DNA of 13,541 nt from a virus (taxonomy: Duplodnaviria > Heunggongvirae > Uroviricota > Caudoviricetes), in the IMG/VR virus record IMGVR_UViG_3300029498_000044; one strand, 5' to 3'. Positions 2,579 to 13,541 of this stretch are shown here, piece by piece. A program made the position numbers and the translations under genes. Numbering within the stretch: the stretch's first letter is position 1; each line of letters begins with the position of its first letter. Below the pieces are notes generated by a model. It was not told the origin of the DNA. It was given only the letters and a program-made list of their open reading frames with translations, and did not search any database.

Positions 2579-2752
2579 TTATTCCCGAACTACCTTGAAA
2601 CCGAGTCTTTCCAAGTATTCAATGAATGCCTCAACAGATAACACTACATGATCATCAGGAATTAACGCTGTGTAGGTAATACCCCCATTCTCAACGCGCA
2701 CAGCATAGAGGCCATCTTCACTAAAAATTTCACGTAATTCTTCGATTTTCAT
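2579..2752 (-). CDS. Hypothetical small protein (57 aa)
   Basis: ATG at 2752 preceded by GGAAGGA 8 nt upstream. Track ORF 2579..2800 trimmed to this start. Confidence 0.45.
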   Translation of the reverse strand: MKIEELREIFSEDGLYAVRVENGGITYTALIPDDHVVLSVEAFIEYLERLGFKVVRE

Positions 2753-2909: not shown

Positions 2910-4016
2910 TCAAACAATCTGGAAAATATTTCTTGGATTTGTAATAGGTCTGTTGATGGAGAACAACTCACGAATTAAATCTTGGCTCAAGCCAGTTTTC
3001 ATAAGAATTCTTAGCCAGGTTGCATCATCCAGCATTTCAATCGCCTCGGCCAGCATGCCGGGTTCTTCAGGGCGCAAAAGTTCATCACCAGGTTCAACTC
3101 TCGTATACCCTCTGGAATTAAGATGCATATAGCCAGTTCTTGCCTGTTCCTGGGTCAATAAGCCTAATGCGCTGGCTCGATAAATACACATTTTAAGGCT
3201 GATTTTCCATCTAAGTTTAAATTCAACCAGAGCATTCCAGTCGAATTGCTTACCTCGTATTCGTGGAAATTCTTTAATGAAAGATAACCTGGGAACTAAT
3301 AAGGCGCTCGAAAAGTGATCGGCTTGTGATTCCGTAAGTTTATCACCTGTCGTTATGCCCTCATGCATTACTAAATGCCCTAATTCATGACCTAAATCAG
3401 AGCGAAATCTACATATGCTTTTTTTAACATTGTTCCTGATGATAACAGGCCTGTTATTGTGAACAGTAAAAGCATCAACACGATCATCGACTCCCGTAAC
3501 ATGCGCAACGATTACCCCTAAACTCTCCGCCAATTTAACCATTGATGATATAGGGCCAAGACCTAAATTCCAGGCACGGCGACAATCTTCTGCCACTCGC
3601 TCAATATCATTCGGAGTAAGTAATTCAGCCCCTGGGTGCTCCGGTATGTTAACGTCAGGAAATTCGATTTCACCTTCAACAGCAGAAATTATAATATTAA
3701 GAATCTCAGCCCTGGCCAATACACTATTAGTCAGCGTTTGAGTCCTGGACTTCTTACTCCGAAAATGGCAGACATCACTTTCCAGAGCGTATTTTCGTTC
3801 AGTAAAAAGAAAACTGGACTTAATCATAAGCGCTGAAGATATTAACTCAAGACATTGCTCCGATGGCCTGCACCCCTTCTCCAGTTTGCTAACGAATTGC
3901 TTTGTCTTGCCAATTTTTTCGGCTAACTCTTCACAAGAAAGCCCAACAGCCATTCTCGCTAGTTTGAGCTTATCACCCCGATACTCAGTGAAGTTATTCA
4001 CCTGATGTTCCATCAC
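2910..4016 (-). CDS. HTH_XRE DNA-binding domain fused to ImmA/IrrE-family (COG2856) Zn-metallopeptidase
   Basis: N-terminal XRE helix-turn-helix (about residues 12-68, LARMAVGLSCEELAEKIGKTKQFVSKLEKG). HEXXH motif H210-E-L-G-H214 at nt 3375-3389. First codon is GTG at 4016 or ATG at 4013. Overlaps the upstream gene by about 20 nt. Confidence 0.85.
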   Translation of the reverse strand: MMEHQVNNFTEYRGDKLKLARMAVGLSCEELAEKIGKTKQFVSKLEKGCRPSEQCLELISSALMIKSSFLFTERKYALESDVCHFRSKKSRTQTLTNSVLARAEILNIIISAVEGEIEFPDVNIPEHPGAELLTPNDIERVAEDCRRAWNLGLGPISSMVKLAESLGVIVAHVTGVDDRVDAFTVHNNRPVIIRNNVKKSICRFRSDLGHELGHLVMHEGITTGDKLTESQADHFSSALLVPRLSFIKEFPRIRGKQFDWNALVEFKLRWKISLKMCIYRASALGLLTQEQARTGYMHLNSRGYTRVEPGDELLRPEEPGMLAEAIEMLDDATWLRILMKTGLSQDLIRELFSINRPITNPRNIFQIV

Positions 4017-4644
4017 TGCTCACATCCAAATCTTTATCCTTCGTACGCCGACGAAGAGGCACCTTATTAATCTCCGCTTCGTCAGGGAGTGTGTTATAAT
4101 CAAGAGGCATAAGCGGCATCGATGCTGTAGATTGATGAGAAACTATACTAATCTGAGCACCATAAGTATTAAATCCAACAAGAGCTACCTCCCAACGAGG
4201 CAGTGTGGACTCTAATTCACCATCGCCCTCTTCGGATAAAAAAGGCTCAGCTATGACTCGCCATGTAATATCTTGCTCAGCCTCAACATCACCAAACAAT
4301 GAGAGCTGCTCATACTCTACTTTATTTCGACGCAGACGATGTTTCTTTTTGGGGTTATTAATGCAATCTTTGGTAAATTGTAGCGGAACTTTATTTAAAG
4401 CAACTACATAGTCCAACCCCTTGGAAATCATCTCAAGGCCAGGAATTGCATCTTCATTTTGAATAAGATGATTTCTGACCCAATCATAAGCCCTTACACC
4501 TTCAGACCAGTTGCTGTCTAATGCGTGCTTATGATAGTACAGCTGCTCAAGTACGTTAGCGATCTCCGCCAACAAGTGGCGAACATAGTTTTCAGCAAGA
4601 TAAGGTTGAAATTCCCAACAAGGAGCTAACTGATTTTCATTCAT
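3994..4644 (-). CDS. Hypothetical 216-aa protein, operon partner of the HTH-peptidase; candidate effector or toxin
   Basis: Long ORF with no motif I recognise. Contains a basic patch KKKHRLRRNK. Its 3' end overlaps the downstream peptidase gene. Weak SD. Confidence 0.7.
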   Translation of the reverse strand: MNENQLAPCWEFQPYLAENYVRHLLAEIANVLEQLYYHKHALDSNWSEGVRAYDWVRNHLIQNEDAIPGLEMISKGLDYVVALNKVPLQFTKDCINNPKKKHRLRRNKVEYEQLSLFGDVEAEQDITWRVIAEPFLSEEGDGELESTLPRWEVALVGFNTYGAQISIVSHQSTASMPLMPLDYNTLPDEAEINKVPLRRRTKDKDLDVSSDGTSGE

Positions 4645-4809: not shown

Positions 4810-4965
4810 TTACTCCTCAGGTTCGTAAGCTGTGAAGACAGCGACCTCCGTCTGGCCGGTTCGGATTCGTACCTCGCAGAGGTCTTTCCTCGTTACCAGT
4901 GCCGTCACAATGACGGTTAAACAGATGACGATCAGGGCGATTAGCATCGCCTTTTGCTGCTTCAT
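4810..4965 (-). CDS. hokD: Hok-family type I toxin (small membrane peptide, 51 aa)
   Basis: MKQQKAMLIALIVICLTVIVTALVTRKDLCEVRIRTGQTEVAVFTAYEPEE is a canonical Hok/Gef sequence and matches my memory of HokD/RelF. Track ORF 4810..5022 carries a 19-codon upstream extension at the mok-like position. Confidence 0.85.
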   Translation of the reverse strand: MKQQKAMLIALIVICLTVIVTALVTRKDLCEVRIRTGQTEVAVFTAYEPEE

Positions 4966-5169
4966 AGCCTGCTTCTCCTTGCCTTTCGGCACGTAAGAGG
5001 CTAACCTACGTGTGTAGAGCATAGATATGGCCTCAGATTAATGTTAAGCGTCTTGCCGGACGCGTAATGTTAACTGGGGCTTTTCTCTATCTGCCTTTTG
5101 GTGTTCATGCCTGAGACAGATAGCCTCAAGCACCCGCTGCAATTCTACTTAACTCTCCTTTTCCCGCAA
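4966..5169 (-). promoter_or_regulatory. hok promoter and long 5' leader with mok-like start and Sok target
   Basis: Minus-strand TTGCGG (5164-5169), 16-nt spacer, TAGAAT (5142-5147). Leader contains GCTTGAGGCTATCTG...CAGATAG complementary boxes. In-frame upstream ATG at 5022. Confidence 0.5.
5014..5090 (+). ncRNA. Candidate Sok-like antisense RNA (approximate coordinates)
   Basis: Plus-strand TTGCCT (4979-4984), 17-nt spacer, TAACCT (5002-5007) would start a transcript antisense to the mok start and SD. The 3' end is not resolved. Confidence 0.3.
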
Positions 5170-9576: not shown

Positions 9577-10242
9577 TCAAATAAAACCAGCTGCCTTCCG
9601 GCGTTCGTATTCCTGTTTCAGCCGTTCAATTGGCGTTGGCCCTTGCGGGTGTTTAGCCCCTTCCAGTTGTCGTCGCACTGGCGGAACACTCATCCCGTTA
9701 CCAACATGCTTTGCCCATTTCGTCAGTTGCCGTTCCGCAAGTCGTTTTAACTCACCCTGCGTCATCTGGCGCTCAATCCCTCTGGTACGCATTTCGAGGC
9801 AGATGTGGTACAGCACAGGCTGAGGCCACGGATATTTGTCGCTTCCGTCATATCGCCAGGACTCATCACGCCAGCGGCGGTACTCCTCCATCACAGCATC
9901 CACCGTCAGGCCAAATGGATTGGCCCCGCTTTCTGAAATCAGCGCCACAAACTCAGCCAGGTCCGGAGGCCATGTTTCACCCGCCCGGCAGCGGTCCATG
10001 CACTGGCGGCAGACCTGTCGGATTTGCTGCTCAGTCATCGCGCCAATCTGTGCAATCCAGAGCTTCGAAGGTGCGGCCCCGTTCTTCTGGGTCCAGCGGT
10101 TCGAATAAACCTCCCCCATGAGTTCCCACAGCTTCCAGACCGTTTCCGTCGCTGATAAATCCGTTTTCACGTTCCCACTGCTCACGTGCTGCCCGAATTT
10201 CCTGAACTGCCCGTGATGCGGTGCCACCTGGTGCTGCTGCAT
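9577..10242 (-). CDS. Lambda P-like replication protein (DnaB helicase loader)
   Basis: Aligns from memory with lambda P (PPDLAEFVALI, YPWPQPVLYHICLEMR). ATG at 10242 with strong GGGGGT SD. Overlaps the 3' end of the O-like ORF by 212 nt in another frame. Confidence 0.8.
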   Translation of the reverse strand: MQQHQVAPHHGQFRKFGQHVSSGNVKTDLSATETVWKLWELMGEVYSNRWTQKNGAAPSKLWIAQIGAMTEQQIRQVCRQCMDRCRAGETWPPDLAEFVALISESGANPFGLTVDAVMEEYRRWRDESWRYDGSDKYPWPQPVLYHICLEMRTRGIERQMTQGELKRLAERQLTKWAKHVGNGMSVPPVRRQLEGAKHPQGPTPIERLKQEYERRKAAGFI

Positions 10243-11071
10243 GGTTTACCCCCTTGCTGACTGGCTTAACCTGCGCCCTGACGTGATTTACGTGACGGGC
10301 GAATTTCTGCTCCCACTGAACCTGCGTGAAAACTTTCCCCTCCGCTGCCCAGTAGTCCCGGAAAGCGGCAAGTTCAGCAGGTGTAAATTCCGGCTCCGGC
10401 AAAGCCATCCCCCACAACGCAGCCCGTCGTCGAAAATCCGGCGACGGATGCCAGTCATCGACCATCGGAAATTTCCCGATGGGTTCGCTCAGTCCATCCA
10501 GGGATGCAGGTTCTGCTGCCTGCAACGGCGTACCACTCGACTCACTGGTCGGAGCACTCTCGCGCACGTGCGCGTTATGTGTGGGGTTTAATTCTTTATC
10601 TGTATCTTTATCTGTCGTGACTCGTCGTGACATGTCGTGACATATGCGTGACTCGTCGTGACACCCCTCATTCTGTTTTCGTAATTTTTCCCTCTCGCGC
10701 TGCGCTCTCTTGCGCTCTGCCGGGGATTTCGCGGTTTGTGAAACGTTGCCATTGTCCTCTTTCAGGACCTGGCGTTTTTCCCATCCGGTGATTAAATCTC
10801 CATCAAGTACCCGCCCCTGCATTGCCTGTAAAATTGAATCAATTACTTCTTCCGTCACATCAAGCGCACTTGCTAAATCTTCCGTCGTGACATCAATGTG
10901 ACCACGTAGTGACACGCCGTGACATGTCGTGACATTTCGTGACGCGCTCACCAGAAGGTGGATATACACTGCCATCACTGTTGCAATTGGCTGCCCTGAC
11001 ACCCTGGCAATTGTTCGCCACTTAGGGTCATTTGGCATGTCATGCCATAATCTGAGCCAGGCGTTAGCCAT
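10031..11071 (-). CDS. O-like replication initiator (DUF1376 / YdaU-like N-terminus)
   Basis: N-terminus MANAWLRLWHDMPNDPKWRTIARV. Two iteron arrays lie inside the ORF. ATG at 11071 with GAGGTG SD (GTG at 11077 also possible). Confidence 0.75.
   Translation of the reverse strand: MANAWLRLWHDMPNDPKWRTIARVSGQPIATVMAVYIHLLVSASRNVTTCHGVSLRGHIDVTTEDLASALDVTEEVIDSILQAMQGRVLDGDLITGWEKRQVLKEDNGNVSQTAKSPAERKRAQREREKLRKQNEGCHDESRICHDMSRRVTTDKDTDKELNPTHNAHVRESAPTSESSGTPLQAAEPASLDGLSEPIGKFPMVDDWHPSPDFRRRAALWGMALPEPEFTPAELAAFRDYWAAEGKVFTQVQWEQKFARHVNHVRAQVKPVSKGVNHAAAPGGTASRAVQEIRAAREQWERENGFISDGNGLEAVGTHGGGLFEPLDPEERGRTFEALDCTDWRDD
10614..10662. repeat. Iteron array 1: five copies of GTCGTGAC (one variant)
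   Basis: Copies at 10614-21, 10624-31, 10634-41, 10647-53 (GCGTGAC), 10655-62. Spacing 9-12 bp. Preceded by an AT-rich CTTTATCTGT x2 stretch. Confidence 0.6.
10884..10943. repeat. Iteron array 2: six copies of nnCGTGAC
   Basis: Copies end at 10891, 10902, 10913, 10923, 10933, 10943, spaced 10-11 bp (about one helical turn). Confidence 0.6.
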
Positions 11072-11142
11072 ACTCACCTCTTCTGATACCGAATCTTTTT
11101 ACTCACAAATTGCCGGAAGTGATCCGGTATGAATATTGCGAG

Positions 11143-11568
11143 TCAATGCACAGCCACAATATTTCCTGCAGGGCCACCACGATTCATCTGGTTGAAACCA
11201 GCGATCGCCACTGCGACAAAATCATCAGCGTCTCTCACCAGTCGTTCCCGCGTCTCCACCAGCTCCCGAAAATAAGCTGAACTGTGGCTGCGCATTCGGG
11301 CCACCAGCAGAGGCGGCATTGCTTTTTCGATCGCTGGTAACAACGCCTGAATTTTTTTAACCGCATCAGGAGTGTCTTTCTCCACCCAGCGGAAAATTTT
11401 CTGGGTATTGCGAGCCAGGGCTTCCGGATGGCTGTCGTCATATAATTCCGGGAACGTCATACCAAGCTCAAAATAAGCCCGGGTTATTTCAGCTGCCGGA
11501 ACTTTTTCACCGTCCGGATGCGCCCAGGCATTCATCGCCATGCGGATGTGCTCATGCCTGATTTTCAT
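11143..11568 (-). CDS. ydaT: YdaT-like regulator (cII functional analog of Rac-type prophages)
   Basis: 141 aa, MKIRHEHI...IVAVH. N- and C-terminal signature and length match Rac YdaT from memory. Sits between the cro-like and O-like genes. Confidence 0.75.
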   Translation of the reverse strand: MKIRHEHIRMAMNAWAHPDGEKVPAAEITRAYFELGMTFPELYDDSHPEALARNTQKIFRWVEKDTPDAVKKIQALLPAIEKAMPPLLVARMRSHSSAYFRELVETRERLVRDADDFVAVAIAGFNQMNRGGPAGNIVAVH

Positions 11569-11827
11569 GAATCAACTCCGATGCATTTGGTGTGTTAGCC
11601 TTGAATCCAACAGGTAAGCCGTCGGTTGGATTCGGGTAAATATCAGGCCGGAGTTCATGAGGTGTAACCTCGAAATTCGTTACTTCAGCAACACGTAATG
11701 CTTTTTCAGGGCTGAATCTTTCATAGCCCCCCAGCACTCGACTTACATGCACCTGAGATAAACCCGTTAGCTTCCCAAACTGTAGCTGGGTGATATGTTT
11801 CTCTTTTAAATAGTCTCTTAAGTTCAT
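11552..11827 (-). CDS. Cro/YdaS-like HTH regulator
   Basis: HTH segment ITQLQFGKLTGLSQVHVSRVL, followed by an ELRPDIYP motif. ATG at 11827 with GAAGG SD (track start at 11833 is TTG). Divergent from the repressor. Confidence 0.75.
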   Translation of the reverse strand: MNLRDYLKEKHITQLQFGKLTGLSQVHVSRVLGGYERFSPEKALRVAEVTNFEVTPHELRPDIYPNPTDGLPVGFKANTPNASELIHENQA

Positions 11828-11857
11828 AGCCAACCTTCTACGTTATGCCTCGAGCAA

Positions 11858-11886
11858 ATATTAGCCCCGCTAATTTTAAAGATCAA
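11858..11886 (-). promoter_or_regulatory. pR-like early-right promoter with overlapping operator-like TAATATT motif
   Basis: Minus-strand TTGATC (11881-11886), 17-nt spacer, TAATAT (11858-11863). The -10 lies inside GCTAATATTTGC. Confidence 0.45.
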
Positions 11887-11934
11887 TAGCCAGACTATCT
11901 TTGATAATATTGGTAAAACAAATAAACTCTATGT

Positions 11935-12396
11935 ATGAAAAAAACACGCGAAGTGATTGCAACTCCAGAAGCGAGCAAGAATTTAAAAGCCGCATGGAAT
12001 GCAAGAAAAAAAGAGCTGAAGCTGACTCAAGAGCTGGCGGCTGAGTTGTTGGGATTCGAATCTCAAGGCACCGTTAGCCAGTATCTGAACGGCAAGATAC
12101 CGGTAAATACCGACGCTGCGCTAAAATTTGCGGCTCTGTTAAAGGTAAAACCAGAGGACATTCGAGAAGACCTTAAAGACTTAATGAATTATGTAAGATC
12201 ATCAGATACTTATGATGATAACTTTTCAGGCAAAGGATGGAGGCTGGTCAATGAAGAACAGGCAGAGTTACTTAACCTCTTCGAGATTCTACCTGCGTCA
12301 GAAAAAGCCAAACTCCTTAACCAGCTACGTGGACTAAACAAGCTCTACGAGGAAGCCTTCGAGAACATGCTGGCACTAAAGAAACGTAACCAGTAG
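11935..12396 (+). CDS. Prophage repressor, DicA/RacR-like (HTH_XRE, no S24 peptidase domain)
   Basis: 153 aa. N-terminal XRE HTH (LTQELAAELLGFESQGTVSQYLNG). C-terminal ELLNLFEILPASEKAKL resembles the DicA C-terminus. No LexA-type Ser/Lys autocleavage domain. Confidence 0.8.
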   Translation: MKKTREVIATPEASKNLKAAWNARKKELKLTQELAAELLGFESQGTVSQYLNGKIPVNTDAALKFAALLKVKPEDIREDLKDLMNYVRSSDTYDDNFSGKGWRLVNEEQAELLNLFEILPASEKAKLLNQLRGLNKLYEEAFENMLALKKRNQ

Positions 12397-12422
12397 CCAC
12401 CGCTCACTACCCCATCCACAAC

Positions 12423-12452
12423 AAAAAAACCGACGTCTTAGTCGGTTTTTTT
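12423..12452 (+). terminator. Rho-independent terminator after the repressor gene (potentially bidirectional)
   Basis: Stem ACCGAC/GTCGGT (12429-12434/12441-12446), loop GTCTTA. Flanked by an A7 run upstream and a T7 run downstream. Confidence 0.7.
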
Positions 12453-12549
12453 GTGCCATAACTTCTGCAAATCAGCTGTATAACTAATATTTTTCCCTTG
12501 AAAAAACATTTACATAGTTACCAAATCAAAAATATCATACGCCATACTG

Positions 12550-12578
12550 TTGACTTAAAATATCCGCGTTACTAATAT
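12550..12578 (+). promoter_or_regulatory. pL-like promoter for the ydfABC-dicF operon, with operator-like CTAATATTT motif over the -10
   Basis: TTGACT (12550-12555), 17-nt spacer, TAATAT (12573-12578). CTAATATTT recurs at 12484-12492 and, inverted, in the pR region. Confidence 0.5.
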
Positions 12579-12649
12579 TTCTATCAAGAACAGCACGGCG
12601 CTGTAGGTTTTAGTTCCGCCACCCGGCGTTAAGGGGAAATGAGGTCAGC

Positions 12650-12805
12650 ATGGATACTATCGAGCTTGGCAACAACGAATCTCTGGTGTACGGCGTGTTT
12701 CCCAACCAGGACGGCACATTCACCGCGATGACGTATACCAAAAGCAAAACGTTTAAAACCGAAAATGGTGCCCGTCGCTGGCTGGAAAGAAACTCAGGTG
12801 AGTGA
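12650..12805 (+). CDS. ydfA: Small protein, 51 aa (YdfA/YdaF-like by size and synteny)
   Basis: Unlisted ORF MDTIELGNNESLVYGVFPNQDGTFTAMTYTKSKTFKTENGARRWLERNSGE. GAGG SD 6 nt upstream. First gene after the pL-like promoter. Confidence 0.55.
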   Translation: MDTIELGNNESLVYGVFPNQDGTFTAMTYTKSKTFKTENGARRWLERNSGE

Positions 12806-12806
12806 T

Positions 12807-12935
12807 ATGGATTTCGACACAATCATGGAAAAGGCTTACGAAGAATACTTCGAAGGCCTTGCCGAAGGCGAAGAAGCTCTCAGCTTCAGTGAGTTTAAAC
12901 AGGCGCTTTCCAGCTCGGCAAAATCTAACGGCTGA
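12807..12935 (+). CDS. ydfB: Small protein, 42 aa (YdfB/YdaG-like by size and synteny)
   Basis: Unlisted ORF MDFDTIMEKAYEEYFEGLAEGEEALSFSEFKQALSSSAKSNG. Starts 2 nt after the preceding stop. Confidence 0.5.
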   Translation: MDFDTIMEKAYEEYFEGLAEGEEALSFSEFKQALSSSAKSNG

Positions 12936-12964
12936 TAAGCGAAGCAGCACCGCGAGGAATCAGT

Positions 12965-13183
12965 ATGCAGAAACGAGAACCCGTCATCATCGCGCCAGAC
13001 TATACCGATGATGAACTTTATGAGTGGATGCACCAGAAAATTAATGCAGCGCAGGATCTGAAATGGGCCAATGAAGCCAGGGCTAAGCAGGCTGAAAATC
13101 TGTCCGCTCTGGAGCAGGATATCACTAATCTGGAAAAAGCAGCGGCATTAAGCATTGCCAGAATGATTACATACCCGCGTTAA
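12965..13183 (+). CDS. ydfC: Small protein, 72 aa (YdfC-like by size and synteny)
   Basis: Track ORF with GAGGA SD. Coiled-coil-like sequence. Third small gene before the structured dicF precursor region. Confidence 0.55.
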   Translation: MQKREPVIIAPDYTDDELYEWMHQKINAAQDLKWANEARAKQAENLSALEQDITNLEKAAALSIARMITYPR

Positions 13184-13524
13184 TAGCTAACCAACGAAGC
13201 TAAGGTTGGTAATTAAGGAGTTCTCCACGGGTGAGGTGGAGTGCGTGCGCCGGACACGGGTGAGCATCCGGCACTGACAGTTTACTGAAAGGATATTTCC
13301 CTGAAAAGTCAGACCATAACGCGAAAGCGCACGGCGAGGTAGCTGGTTCATAGATAGCCTGTCGTTAAATTTTCGTCGACCGTGCGCTTCCGGTTGTGGC
13401 AATCCGCGAAATGGCGCGGCGGTAAGTATGGCGGGGTTATTCCTTCCACCGTTGAGGACACCGGGTTGTCAGGTTGACCATACGCTTAAGTGACAACCCC
13501 GCTGCAACGCCCTCTGTTATCAAT

Positions 13525-13541
13525 TTTCTGGTGACGTTTGG
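13525..13541 (+). ncRNA. dicF: 5' end of DicF sRNA (truncated by the window edge)
   Basis: Window ends TTTCTGGTGACGTTTGG, which matches the 5' start of E. coli DicF as I recall it. It is preceded by about 340 nt of GC-rich, hairpin-rich non-coding sequence downstream of the ydfC-like gene. Confidence 0.45.

Follow-up and report, generated by a model that had tools for sequence, protein, structure and literature searches.

A probable lambdoid immunity switch in a Rac/Qin-type Escherichia coli prophage, laid out like PaaR2-YdaS-YdaT and DicA-DicC-dicBp

Among described prophage switches, the closest to the locus studied here are PaaR2-YdaS-YdaT of CP-933P and DicA-DicC-dicBp of Qin. In CP-933P, PaaR2 and YdaS produce footprints on OR- and OL-type sites and paaR2 is leaderless, leaderless translation having been demonstrated experimentally for both PaaR2 and lambda cI (PMC8630535). 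A site of the TTGATT-N6-AATCAA type is located at the end of CP-933P ydaS (PMC9986795). The Qin repressor DicA has the operator Oc, TTGTTAGT-N4-ACTAACAA (PMC3441716). Release from DicA repression occurs spontaneously and in response to Rem, urea or heat, but not to mitomycin C; Rem is an antirepressor that derepresses the DicA-controlled dicBp (PMC10448788).

We analysed a 13,541-nucleotide stretch of viral DNA (the window), in which an initial annotation had placed an immunity region; the gene content and order and the layout of promoters and repeats bear this out. The genes for a CI-like repressor of 153 residues (11935–12396, + strand) and a Cro-like, YdaS-family HTH protein of 91 residues (11552–11827, − strand; Pfam YdaS_toxin/HTH_3; PGAP “YdaS family helix-turn-helix protein”) diverge from back-to-back promoters, as in lambdoid CI/Cro/CII regions, across an OR-like control region of 107 bp (11828–11934). 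This length is kept at 106–107 bp in the homologous loci of Enterobacter, Hafnia, Serratia and metagenomes. The cro-like gene is followed, again in lambdoid fashion, by a CII-type gene with its own junction site. Its 141-residue product, YdaT (11143–11568, − strand; Pfam YdaT_toxin), is near-identical to PDB entries 3c4r (E 3e-91) and 8bt1 (E 4e-79), the latter being CP-933P YdaT. The OM-type site CTGATTTTCATGAATCAA (11558–11575) lies where ydaS ends and ydaT starts, a pRE-type position, and has one mismatch to TTGATT-N6-AATCAA, of which it is the sole match in the window. A complete lambdoid early region surrounds these genes, with O/P replication, Q antiterminator and pL-operon genes, an integrase and an excisionase, and the same gene content and order is what PGAP annotates where strains ST69 and MCJCHV-1 carry identical DNA.

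The repressor gene lies directly upstream of ydfABC-dicF and on the same strand, as dicA does in Qin. It is followed by an intrinsic terminator (12421–12454), a perfect 14-bp inverted repeat (I2) flanked by A/T runs, which is kept in phage Rac-SA53 and in E. ludwigii. The first genes of the pL operon are ydfA (12650–12805), ydfB (12807–12935) and ydfC (12965–13183), all on the + strand, and the 5′ end of dicF (13525–13541) is cut by the window end. From about 12620 on, this DNA is ~98% identical to Qin ydfABC-dicF, and the controlled operon is thus the same as in Qin; the promoter/operator stretch differs. An Rfam search of 11828–12650 returned nothing above threshold, with sub-threshold, terminator-like matches at 12418–12494, and RNAalifold gave no supported consensus structure for the conserved pL leader.

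Taking the identity of the switch, its operators, a leaderless repressor mRNA, a non-cleavable repressor and the route of derepression as one joint proposition, we consider it probable that a Rac/Qin-type lambdoid E. coli prophage has its immunity (lysis-lysogeny) switch in this region, laid out like PaaR2-YdaS-YdaT and DicA-DicC-dicBp. In the mechanism that we propose, repressor bound to the OR1 and OL1 candidates described below would keep ydaS-ydaT and the replication genes off on one side and ydfABC-dicF-dicB off on the other, the Cro-like YdaS would be expected to compete for the repressor's sites, and the inverted repeat at the ydaS/ydaT junction would be the expected target of the CII-like YdaT. 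Since such a switch controls the dicF/dicB cell-division inhibitors, its derepression bears on prophage-driven filamentation. It belongs to a well-studied kind and leaves current concepts unchanged. Its practical use is in annotation and experiment design: the locus can be treated as a switch of the CI/Cro/CII type, for which operators are predicted, the repressor mRNA is probably leaderless and one ORF is a candidate antirepressor.

The likeness to the PaaR2 switch is one of layout and domain content. Both have a short CI-like repressor without an S24 domain, divergent from a Cro-like YdaS across an OR of ~100 bp, a near-identical YdaT and a TTGATT-N6-AATCAA-type site at the ydaS end, a second operator set at pL, the pL and pR −10s being the same, and a repressor start without a Shine-Dalgarno (SD) sequence directly after a −10. 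However, they differ in immunity specificity, the CP-933P repeat consensus being GTTTAGTAA and that of the window AATATTAGY, and paaA2-parE2 follow the CP-933P repressor gene where the window has the terminator and then pL. Unlike in Qin, the Cro-like gene of the window is of the YdaS type and is followed by ydaT. Rac of K-12, with RacR-YdaS-YdaT, shares the position and role of the switch in a Rac-like early region and YdaS/YdaT-family neighbours.

From its N to its C terminus, the repressor has an HTH domain (residues ~11–76), a linker and a helical hairpin like that of DicA (residues 107–152). The initial annotation had described an XRE HTH with a short helical C-terminus and no LexA/S24 domain, and our data agree: Pfam recognizes HTH_3/HTH_31 only, Peptidase_S24 (PF00717) has no Pfam match in the 153 residues, and the AlphaFold2 model made from a 42-sequence alignment (pLDDT 80.6), used after a single-sequence model (pLDDT 49) was discarded, is entirely helical. 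The top Foldseek matches to the model are 1lmb/1lli and the best PDB sequence match is the lambda cI N-terminal domain (E 2.6e-4), making the lambda HTH the closest in both sequence and structure. Relatives that bear S24 align with the repressor only over its first ~90 residues, the HTH. The C-terminus is homologous to the C-terminal helical segment of DicA (38% over 42 residues, E 8e-6, the only residues that BLASTP aligns), and neither protein has an Ala-Gly/S24 cleavage module. By contrast, the HTH domain and the operator differ from those of DicA, and the NCBIfam DicA model NF007257 scores 35.1 bits (E 9.9e-9) against a cut-off of 101. The earlier designation “DicA/RacR-type” therefore stands for the DicA-homologous hairpin and fails for RacR (b1356), to which BLASTP detects no similarity (E 26), the HTH being closest to lambda cI; “RacR-type” applies by analogy only. 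The hairpin is probably an oligomerization domain. With the S24 domain lacking and a DicA-like hairpin in its place, inactivation by RecA-stimulated self-cleavage is not expected, which sets this repressor apart from that of lambda and is what had been anticipated from the sequence.

The repressor and the “dicA” product of phage Rac-SA53 share 99.3% identity; among 5426 complete E. coli genomes, 180 have the repressor gene. The immunity type thus occurs in about 3% of these genomes and in Rac-SA53, an LT-II toxin phage, with relatives across Enterobacterales. PADLOC also gave Aga_SIR2 matches for the repressor (E about 2e-3), which we regard as noise.

How might such a switch be turned? Derepression would most likely proceed through a small antirepressor and/or a spontaneous or stress-driven flip of a bistable switch, as for DicA. 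Gifsy-type repressors, which likewise have no cleavage module, are countered by trans-acting antirepressors (PMC3121763, as summarized in PMC10448788), and a small-protein antagonist would be expected here too. A 57-residue Rem-like open reading frame (ORF) in the nin region (2579–2752, − strand) is the best antirepressor candidate in the window. As in Qin, the Rem-like ORF lies between ydfU and hokD. However, it resembles Qin Rem (b1561) only over the N-terminal 26 residues (73%). Over its full length it is similar to the “Rem” of Rac-SA53 (68%), which has the same repressor, and to the product of a 59-residue Hafnia prophage gene (39%), the repressor of that prophage being 71% identical to the one studied here. 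PGAP calls the Rem-like ORF a truncated remnant. Whereas Gifsy antirepressors are LexA-controlled (PMC3121763, as summarized in PMC10448788), the LexA box (CTGT-N8-ACAG) matched the window five times against 4.07 expected, and neither OR/OL nor the DNA preceding the Rem-like ORF has a match.

The repressor gene was found in 181 records, the Rem-variant DNA in 194 and either in 236; the two occur together in 139, a co-occurrence that is confounded by physical linkage and clonality, and 55 records have the Rem variant without the repressor. A strict cognate link between the Rem variant and this repressor was rejected since the same variant is found alongside a RacR repressor: strain G8 has an identical Rem/RosmerTA nin region in a prophage with a RacR-type repressor. 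The Rem-like ORF is nonetheless, as a candidate, better placed as the inducer than the ImmA-like peptidase considered below.

For the induction step only, it is quite possible, if not the reading we favour, that there is no dedicated antirepressor and that an intrinsically unstable repressor flips spontaneously or under stress, YdaS then locking the induced state. [quoted passage not shown] Nevertheless, this route is compatible with an antirepressor, as Qin has both, and nothing in the sequence bears on protein stability. A more general proposal, which is speculative and on balance unlikely, holds that short Rem-like proteins of 57–59 residues serve specifically as antirepressors, independently of SOS, for a CI family widespread among enterobacteria. 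Members of this family would have retained the lambda-type HTH and AATATTAGY-N3-RCTAATATT operators and exchanged S24 for a DicA-like hairpin. The CI of an Stx phage illustrates such a domain swap: it shares 50% of the HTH with the repressor and has similar operators and an intact S24 domain. If the proposal were true, one domain exchange would turn an SOS-inducible prophage into one induced through Rem by another signal.

A pR-like promoter, TTGATC-17-TAATAT (11858–11886, − strand), was read from the sequence and would transcribe ydaS-ydaT and the replication genes. With no more than 8 of 12 consensus positions matched, it fell below the threshold of the promoter scan, which did not list it; most homologous loci retain its −35 (TTGATC/TTGATT) and −10 (TAATAT). 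The scan gave a pRM-like promoter, TTGATA-16-TAAACT (11901–11928, + strand), and a pL-like promoter, TTGACT-17-TAATAT (12550–12578, + strand), the equivalent of dicBp, predicted to drive ydfA-ydfB-ydfC-dicF. Between the −10 of the pRM-like promoter and the repressor ATG lie 6 nt, with no SD sequence, and in all homologues (8 loci) a −10-like hexamer (TAAACT/TAAAAT/TAGAAT) stands at the same distance from the ATG, likewise with no SD. From this spacing and the lack of an SD we infer that the repressor mRNA, started at a weak pRM-like promoter, is probably leaderless. The layout of lambda likewise includes a leaderless repressor mRNA, together with CII-type activation from within or after cro.

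The initial annotation had singled out the heptamer TAATATT as an operator-like motif. All four copies lie exactly where it had put them (11857–11863, − strand; 11905–11911, 12485–12491 and 12573–12579, + strand), and the first and last do overlap the TAATAT −10 hexamers of the pR- and pL-like promoters, respectively. The heptamer has two further matches in the window, a self-complementary pair at 3692–3699, giving six against 1.63 expected, a number reached in 0 of 200 shuffles. It is also the commonest 7-mer of the two intergenic stretches (107 bp at 65% AT and 195 bp at 62% AT), where four copies compare with 0.29 expected from local dinucleotide shuffles (P(≥4) = 0.0018). AT-richness alone, which had been named as a possible explanation, thus does not account for the motif. 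As to its role as an operator site, the heptamer does lie in operator-like repeats over pR, pRM and pL, but the unit is a 9-bp half-site, RCTAATATT, rather than the heptamer itself.

We propose that the repressor binds 21-bp inverted repeats of 9-3-9 architecture with the consensus AATATTAGY-N3-RCTAATATT, in which TAATATT is the outer arm of each half-site. The OR1 candidate (11857–11877), AATATTAGC-CCC-GCTAATTTT, which is inverted repeat I24, lies over the −10 and spacer of pR and holds the first heptamer. It has a perfect ATTAGC-N3-GCTAAT core at 11860–11874, and in Rac-SA53 the changes in OR1 are limited to the spacer and one purine position (CTC, ACTAAT). The OL1 candidate (12559–12579), AATATCCGC-GTT-ACTAATATT, covers the pL spacer and −10, holds the fourth heptamer and has an imperfect left arm. 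The OR3 candidate (11906–11926), AATATTGGT-AAA-ACAAATAAA, lies in the spacer of the pRM-like promoter and holds the second heptamer. When a consensus built from OR1 alone (to which OR1 itself scores 17/18) was scanned over the 13.5 kb, OR1, OL1 (16/18) and OR3 (14/18) were, in this order, the three best 21-mers in the window, the repetition of operators seen in lambdoid switches. Scores of 16 in shuffled OL and of 14 in shuffled OR arise in 0.04% and 1.5% of trials, respectively. Perfect RCTAATATT half-sites fall within 11854–12579 in 3 of 3 cases, and those with at most one mismatch in 8 of 12; the core ATTAGY-N3-RCTAAT has four matches, three of which are OR1, OR3 and OL1.

Other sites are less clear. 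An OR2 candidate (11882–11902), ATCAATAGC-CAG-ACTATCTTT, is weak, its score of 12/18 being indistinguishable from background, and is proposed only on spacing (its centre is 25 bp from that of OR1 and 24 bp from that of OR3) and on the kept G-Y/R-C inner positions. The third heptamer is held by an isolated perfect half-site, ACTAATATT (12483–12491, + strand), 88 bp upstream of OL1, with no convincing partner arm. Sites OL2 and OL3, placed by eye from the 24–25-bp spacing, were dropped after a hand count gave 9/18 and 6/18; in the consensus scan of the window neither was distinguishable from background. As in lambda, divergent pR and pRM with overlapping operators are combined with pL operators, but the predicted operators are 21-bp 9-3-9 repeats of another sequence, with two strong sites and one moderate site recognizable. 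DicA Oc, TTGTTAGTCATAACTAACAA, has no match within three mismatches in the window, only the operator core TTAG(Y)...(R)CTAA being common to the two systems.

Homologous loci have their predicted operators in equivalent places. In six such loci the top-scoring 21-mers lie at OR1-, OR3- and OL1-equivalent positions, with all three found in four loci. The OR3 equivalent is among the top matches in five of the six, falling outside the top six only in E. ludwigii, and an OL1 equivalent is present in every homologous locus that has a pL region, the Stx phage stretch having held none. A cross-matrix of the best 21-mers of OR against those of OL, meant as a covariation test, gave a clear result in Hafnia, in Serratia and at the P0015 locus, and the pR operator best matches the pL operator of its own locus at 19, 17 and 18 of 21 positions in the Hafnia, Serratia and metagenome relatives, respectively. 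In the immunity group to which the window belongs, the match between OR and OL was no better than that against Serratia; this group and Serratia have the ATTAGC core in common, and the matrix is uninformative here. The consensus is AT-rich and lies over −10 and −35 elements, so its recurrence and fixed positions could partly reflect promoter conservation and not operator function.

Carried to its end, the last point would make TAATATT nothing but −10 elements and AT-rich composition, the real operators being other sequences, such as AAAGAT-N13-ATCTTT at 11871–11909 or sites not recognizable by eye. Two of the four copies are indeed exactly TAATAT −10s, so promoter function explains part of the recurrence; moreover, the regions are 62–65% AT, OR contains another inverted repeat (I10), and the pR −10 TAATAT is kept even where the inner operator bases of relatives differ. 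We nevertheless hold this to be unlikely. The excess over local dinucleotide shuffles stands against it, the match extends beyond the heptamer to 9–10 nt (ACTAATATTT occurs twice, as direct repeat D6) and to 21-bp dyads, and the copies at 11905–11911 and 12485–12491 are not the −10 of any recognizable promoter. The half-site that contains the latter copy lies in a 12-nt island kept in E. ludwigii, where the sequence just upstream has diverged. The former is not kept there, E. ludwigii having TTTATTG at the equivalent position.

A far weaker contender is that the repressor and ydaS-ydaT form a toxin-repressor or atypical toxin-antitoxin module and not a phage switch. This is what the Pfam names YdaS_toxin and YdaT_toxin and the like PGAP names would suggest, and RacR depletion is lethal through ydaS/ydaT (PMC5700373, PMC5700377). 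However, the genes are embedded in the complete lambdoid early region, and CP-933P YdaS and YdaT are Cro- and CII-like regulators, not toxins (PMC8630535, PMC9986795; Jobling letter), which makes a toxin module very improbable. The labels “toxin YdaT”, “YdaS toxin” and “ImmA-like” are not to be taken as toxin-antitoxin or protease-induction functions.

ImmA is encoded beside immR and is co-transcribed with it. ICEBs1 and phi105 (ImmR/ImmA), as well as RosmerTA, resemble the window in combining an S24-less HTH repressor and an M78/IrrE metallopeptidase in one element. The only M78 peptidase in the window (2910–4016) is fused to an HTH of its own, and its Peptidase_M78/IrrE domain contains an HEXXH motif; no stand-alone peptidase adjacent to and co-transcribed with the repressor was found in the window. 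Repressor cleavage by this metallopeptidase, on the model of ImmA acting on ImmR in ICEBs1 and phi105, is the least probable of the readings considered: its M78/IrrE domain and a repressor without a self-cleavage domain would suit it, but the peptidase scores as RmrA beside RmrT, lies 7.9 kb from the repressor gene without being co-transcribed, and is dispensable, its cassette being absent from the strain ST69 prophage and phage Rac-SA53, both with the same repressor, and present with a RacR repressor in another prophage. The suggestion in the initial annotation of an ImmA-like, trans-acting inducer is accordingly not supported. PADLOC identifies RmrA (6.2e-105) and RmrT (4.6e-25) in overlapping ORFs on the same strand (2910–4644), and by this adjacency the cassette is, as judged from its sequence, RosmerTA, a toxin-antitoxin defence pair (Millman et al., preprint).

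The 13.5-kb window represents the early region of an E. coli prophage of the lambdoid Rac/Qin type, and its immunity region is a new specificity in a well-understood class that includes the CP-933P PaaR2/YdaS/YdaT and Qin DicA/DicC/Rem switches. The initial annotation was largely right in kind, erring in its RacR label and in the peptidase that it had put forward as inducer; testable additions are an operator model, a leaderless start and a short Rem family as candidate antirepressors. Many complete E. coli genomes have a prophage with DNA identical or nearly so to 11100-13541; potC and ompW are examples of genes beside which these prophages are integrated. The minus strand carries the Q antiterminator (801-1193), YdfU/DUF968 (1196-2245), a short Rem-like ORF of 57 aa (2579-2752), a two-gene cassette (2910-4644), hok/sok (4810-5135; hok-type toxin ORF, 4810-5022, and sok antisense RNA, 4960-5135, a full-length RF01794 match at 117 bits), nin-region ORFs, replication protein P (9577-10242), the DnaT-like replication protein O (10031-11077), YdaT (11143-11568) and YdaS (11552-11827). 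The plus strand encodes a 153-aa HTH protein, the repressor (11935-12396), and, 3' of it, ydfA, ydfB, ydfC and the first 17 nt of dicF (13525-13541, by alignment to K-12 dicF). The window ends inside this DicF sRNA gene, so the switch would control dicF and, in full-length relatives, dicB too. A plus-strand gene for a lipoprotein-type bacterial lipocalin (121-645; Lipocalin_2, E 7.5e-43) adjoins the Q gene and is probably prophage cargo.

The repressor had been read as an XRE HTH with a short helical C-terminus and no S24 domain, and this description holds: its Pfam matches are to HTH_3/HTH_31 only, and neither Pfam nor the AlphaFold2 model (42 homologues; pLDDT 80.6) shows any trace of an S24 domain or room for one. 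The model consists of a five-helix HTH domain (residues 11-76), an extra helix (78-90), a low-confidence linker (91-106) and a C-terminal helical hairpin (107-117 and 121-152). The best PDB matches by sequence are the N-terminal domains of lambda cI (E 2.6e-4 to 1e-3), and in Foldseek the N-terminal domain superposes on 1lmb/1lli. Of the earlier "DicA/RacR-type" label the first half stands, as the hairpin and its DicA counterpart are homologous (38% over 42 residues, E 8e-6), while no similarity to the RacR sequence was found. The DicA NCBIfam model gives the repressor 35 bits against a cut-off of 101, and the product annotated dicA in phage Rac-SA53 is 99.3% identical to it. Of 5426 complete E. 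coli genomes, 180 carry the repressor; our literature search found no paper on it or its operators, the Rac-SA53/protein-accession search giving one unrelated paper. Relatives form two classes: proteins of ~150 aa with the same C-terminus, spread over the Enterobacterales (Enterobacter, Hafnia, Salmonella, Serratia, Klebsiella, Yersinia, Dickeya and Arsenophonus), and proteins of 230-275 aa that have only the HTH in common with the repressor and contain Peptidase_S24. Evidently, HTH and C-terminal modules have been shuffled.

The operator-like heptamer TAATATT is present at all four reported positions (11857-11863, 11905-11911, 12485-12491 and 12573-12579), and a self-complementary pair lies at 3692-3699. 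The window thus holds six copies against 1.63 expected, a number reached in none of 200 shuffles. As the two intergenic stretches are AT-rich (65% and 62% versus 52% for the window), the shuffle was restricted to these stretches with dinucleotides preserved; the four copies there compare with 0.29 expected (P(>=4) = 0.0018), and TAATATT is their commonest 7-mer. Each of two copies consists of a -10 hexamer and one further base, the hexamers being those of pL (TTGACT-17-TAATAT, 12550-12578, plus strand, from the promoter scan) and pR (TTGATC-17-TAATAT, 11886-11858, minus strand). With only 8 of 12 consensus positions matched, the latter was not listed by the scan and was read directly off the sequence. 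The recurrence is therefore enriched over local composition, but half of the copies are explained by promoter function.

Matches longer than 7 nt are ACTAATATTT, found twice in the pL region, and CTAATATTT at pR. A 21-bp inverted repeat, AATATTAGC-CCC-GCTAATTTT (11857-11877, candidate operator OR1), has the pR heptamer as one of its arms and a perfect ATTAGC-N3-GCTAAT core. When a consensus from this site alone, AATATTAGY-N3-RCTAATATT (18 specified positions), was scanned across the whole window, the second-best 21-mer was 12559-12579 (OL1; 16/18), covering the pL spacer and -10, and the third-best 11906-11926 (OR3; 14/18), within the pRM spacer; no other 21-mer in the window reached 14/18. 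In shuffle controls, pL-region sequence attained 16/18 in 0.04% of trials and the ydaS/repressor intergenic region (OR) 14/18 in 1.5%. Of the 12 window matches to RCTAATATT with no more than one mismatch, 8 lie within 11854-12579, and so do all three perfect half-sites. A site at 11882-11902 is spaced like a lambda OR2, at 25 and 24 bp from the sites on either side, and with a score of only 12/18 is listed as a weak OR2 candidate. The perfect half-site at 12483-12491 has no partner arm and lies in a 12-nt island kept in Enterobacter ludwigii, where the adjacent sequence has diverged. An operator-like half-site, GCTAAAATT, also occurs inside the repressor coding sequence (12120-12128, plus strand), and together with its flanks it matches OR1 in inverted orientation over 17 nt at 82% (11854-11870 versus 12115-12131). 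This may be a chance match in the conserved "AALKFAA" codons or an auxiliary site within the gene.

The comparison loci were, by repressor identity, from E. ludwigii (92%), Hafnia (71%), a metagenome (63%) and Serratia (58%), with an Stx phage as an extra. The intergenic region measures 105-107 bp in all fetched comparison loci, and the top-scoring 21-mers over 6-12 kb occupy OR1-, OR3- and OL1-equivalent positions, except that OR3 is missing from the six best in E. ludwigii and no pL region was included in the Stx phage stretch. Hafnia, the metagenome relative and Serratia have other inner operator bases, and in each the pR operator best matches the pL operator of its own locus (19/21, 18/21 and 17/21, respectively). 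This pattern argues that the 21-mers would be targets of the repressor HTH, with operator and promoter constraint not fully separated because the 21-mers overlap -10 and -35 elements. Rac-SA53 has the ydaS-OR-repressor-terminator-pL module in common with the window and different genes beyond it; its OR differs by a few changes, which affect the operator spacer (CTC for CCC) and a purine position (ACTAAT for GCTAAT). In the Stx phage, Lyz12581Vzw, OR is alignable (L003, its locus, 2879-2946) with an operator of the same type, AATATTTGT-GTT-GCTAATAAA (15/18). Its CI has an intact S24 domain and shares 50% of the HTH with the repressor, the two forming a natural case of one DNA-binding module with and without an SOS-cleavage module.

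The scan placed a pRM-like promoter, TTGATA-16-TAAACT (11901-11928, plus strand), 6 nt 5' of the repressor ATG. Since no Shine-Dalgarno sequence precedes this ATG and a -10-like hexamer at this distance is kept in all homologues, we infer that the repressor mRNA is leaderless, as shown for PaaR2 and lambda cI (PMC8630535). An inverted-repeat search found a terminator with a perfect 14-bp hairpin 3' of the gene (12421-12454).

How the switch is induced has two equally plausible answers, spontaneous or stress-driven flipping and Rem-like antirepression, which possibly coexist. DicA, the characterised repressor with the same C-terminal hairpin, is derepressed by the small antirepressor Rem, by spontaneous DicC-dependent switching and by urea or heat, and mitomycin C does not derepress it (PMC10448788). 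The best specific candidate is the 57-aa ORF (2579-2752, minus strand), which lies at the rem position between ydfU and hokD; residues 1-26 share 73% identity with Rem, beyond which the two differ. It is identical in the other inspected E. coli prophages with this repressor, and has full-length homologues in Rac-SA53 (68%, annotated Rem) and, in the same region, in a Hafnia prophage (59 aa, 39%). Among complete E. coli genomes, 181 records hold the repressor gene, 194 the variant-specific rem DNA and 236 either, so 139 hold both, an association confounded by linkage and clonality and not exclusive, as strain G8 pairs a RacR repressor with the same rem/RosmerTA segment. Given also that the PGAP annotation covers just 75 nt of the ORF and labels these a truncated pseudogene, and that no LexA box was found upstream of it, antirepression by this ORF would be a tentative proposal, on the doubtful side. 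Its C-terminal ~35 residues resemble the C-termini of a Rha-family protein (comparison locus L001, 15360-15464) and a KilA-N protein (L016, 2672-2791).

The proposal that an ImmA-like peptidase acts as a trans-acting inducer is not supported. This 368-aa product of 2910-4016 (HTH_3 fused to Peptidase_M78) is scored as RmrA by PADLOC (6e-105), and its cassette, located between hokD and the Rem-like ORF at 7.9 kb from the repressor gene, is missing from the strain ST69 prophage and Rac-SA53, both with the same repressor. Together with the overlapping upstream ORF (3994-4644; RmrT, 4.6e-25), these scores identify a RosmerTA toxin-antitoxin defence system (Millman et al., preprint). The cassette occurs in some prophages with this nin region and not others, including one with a RacR-type repressor, with no tie to repressor type; it is a moron outside the switch.

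YdaT is near-identical to the crystallised CP-933P YdaT. The sole window match to TTGATT-N6-AATCAA (11558-11575, one mismatch) is a putative YdaT site at the ydaS end, positioned as the footprinted CP-933P OM site (PMC9986795). From about 12620 on, the pL operon shares ~98% identity with ydfABC-dicF of Qin, which does not hold for the promoter/operator stretch, so the operon is common to prophages and the control module immunity-specific. The pL leader (12586-12640, plus strand) is conserved across immunity types including Qin (for example AGTTCCGCCACC..GCGTTAAGGGG; equivalents compared in loci L002, L004, L005, L007, L009 and L011). No consensus structure was supported by RNAalifold run on a MAFFT alignment, and there was no Rfam match; the Hafnia and Serratia leaders contain boxB-like hairpins, CCGG-GAAAGA-CCGG and GCGT-GAAAGA-ACGC, which suggests that the leader may be a nut/put-type antitermination element.
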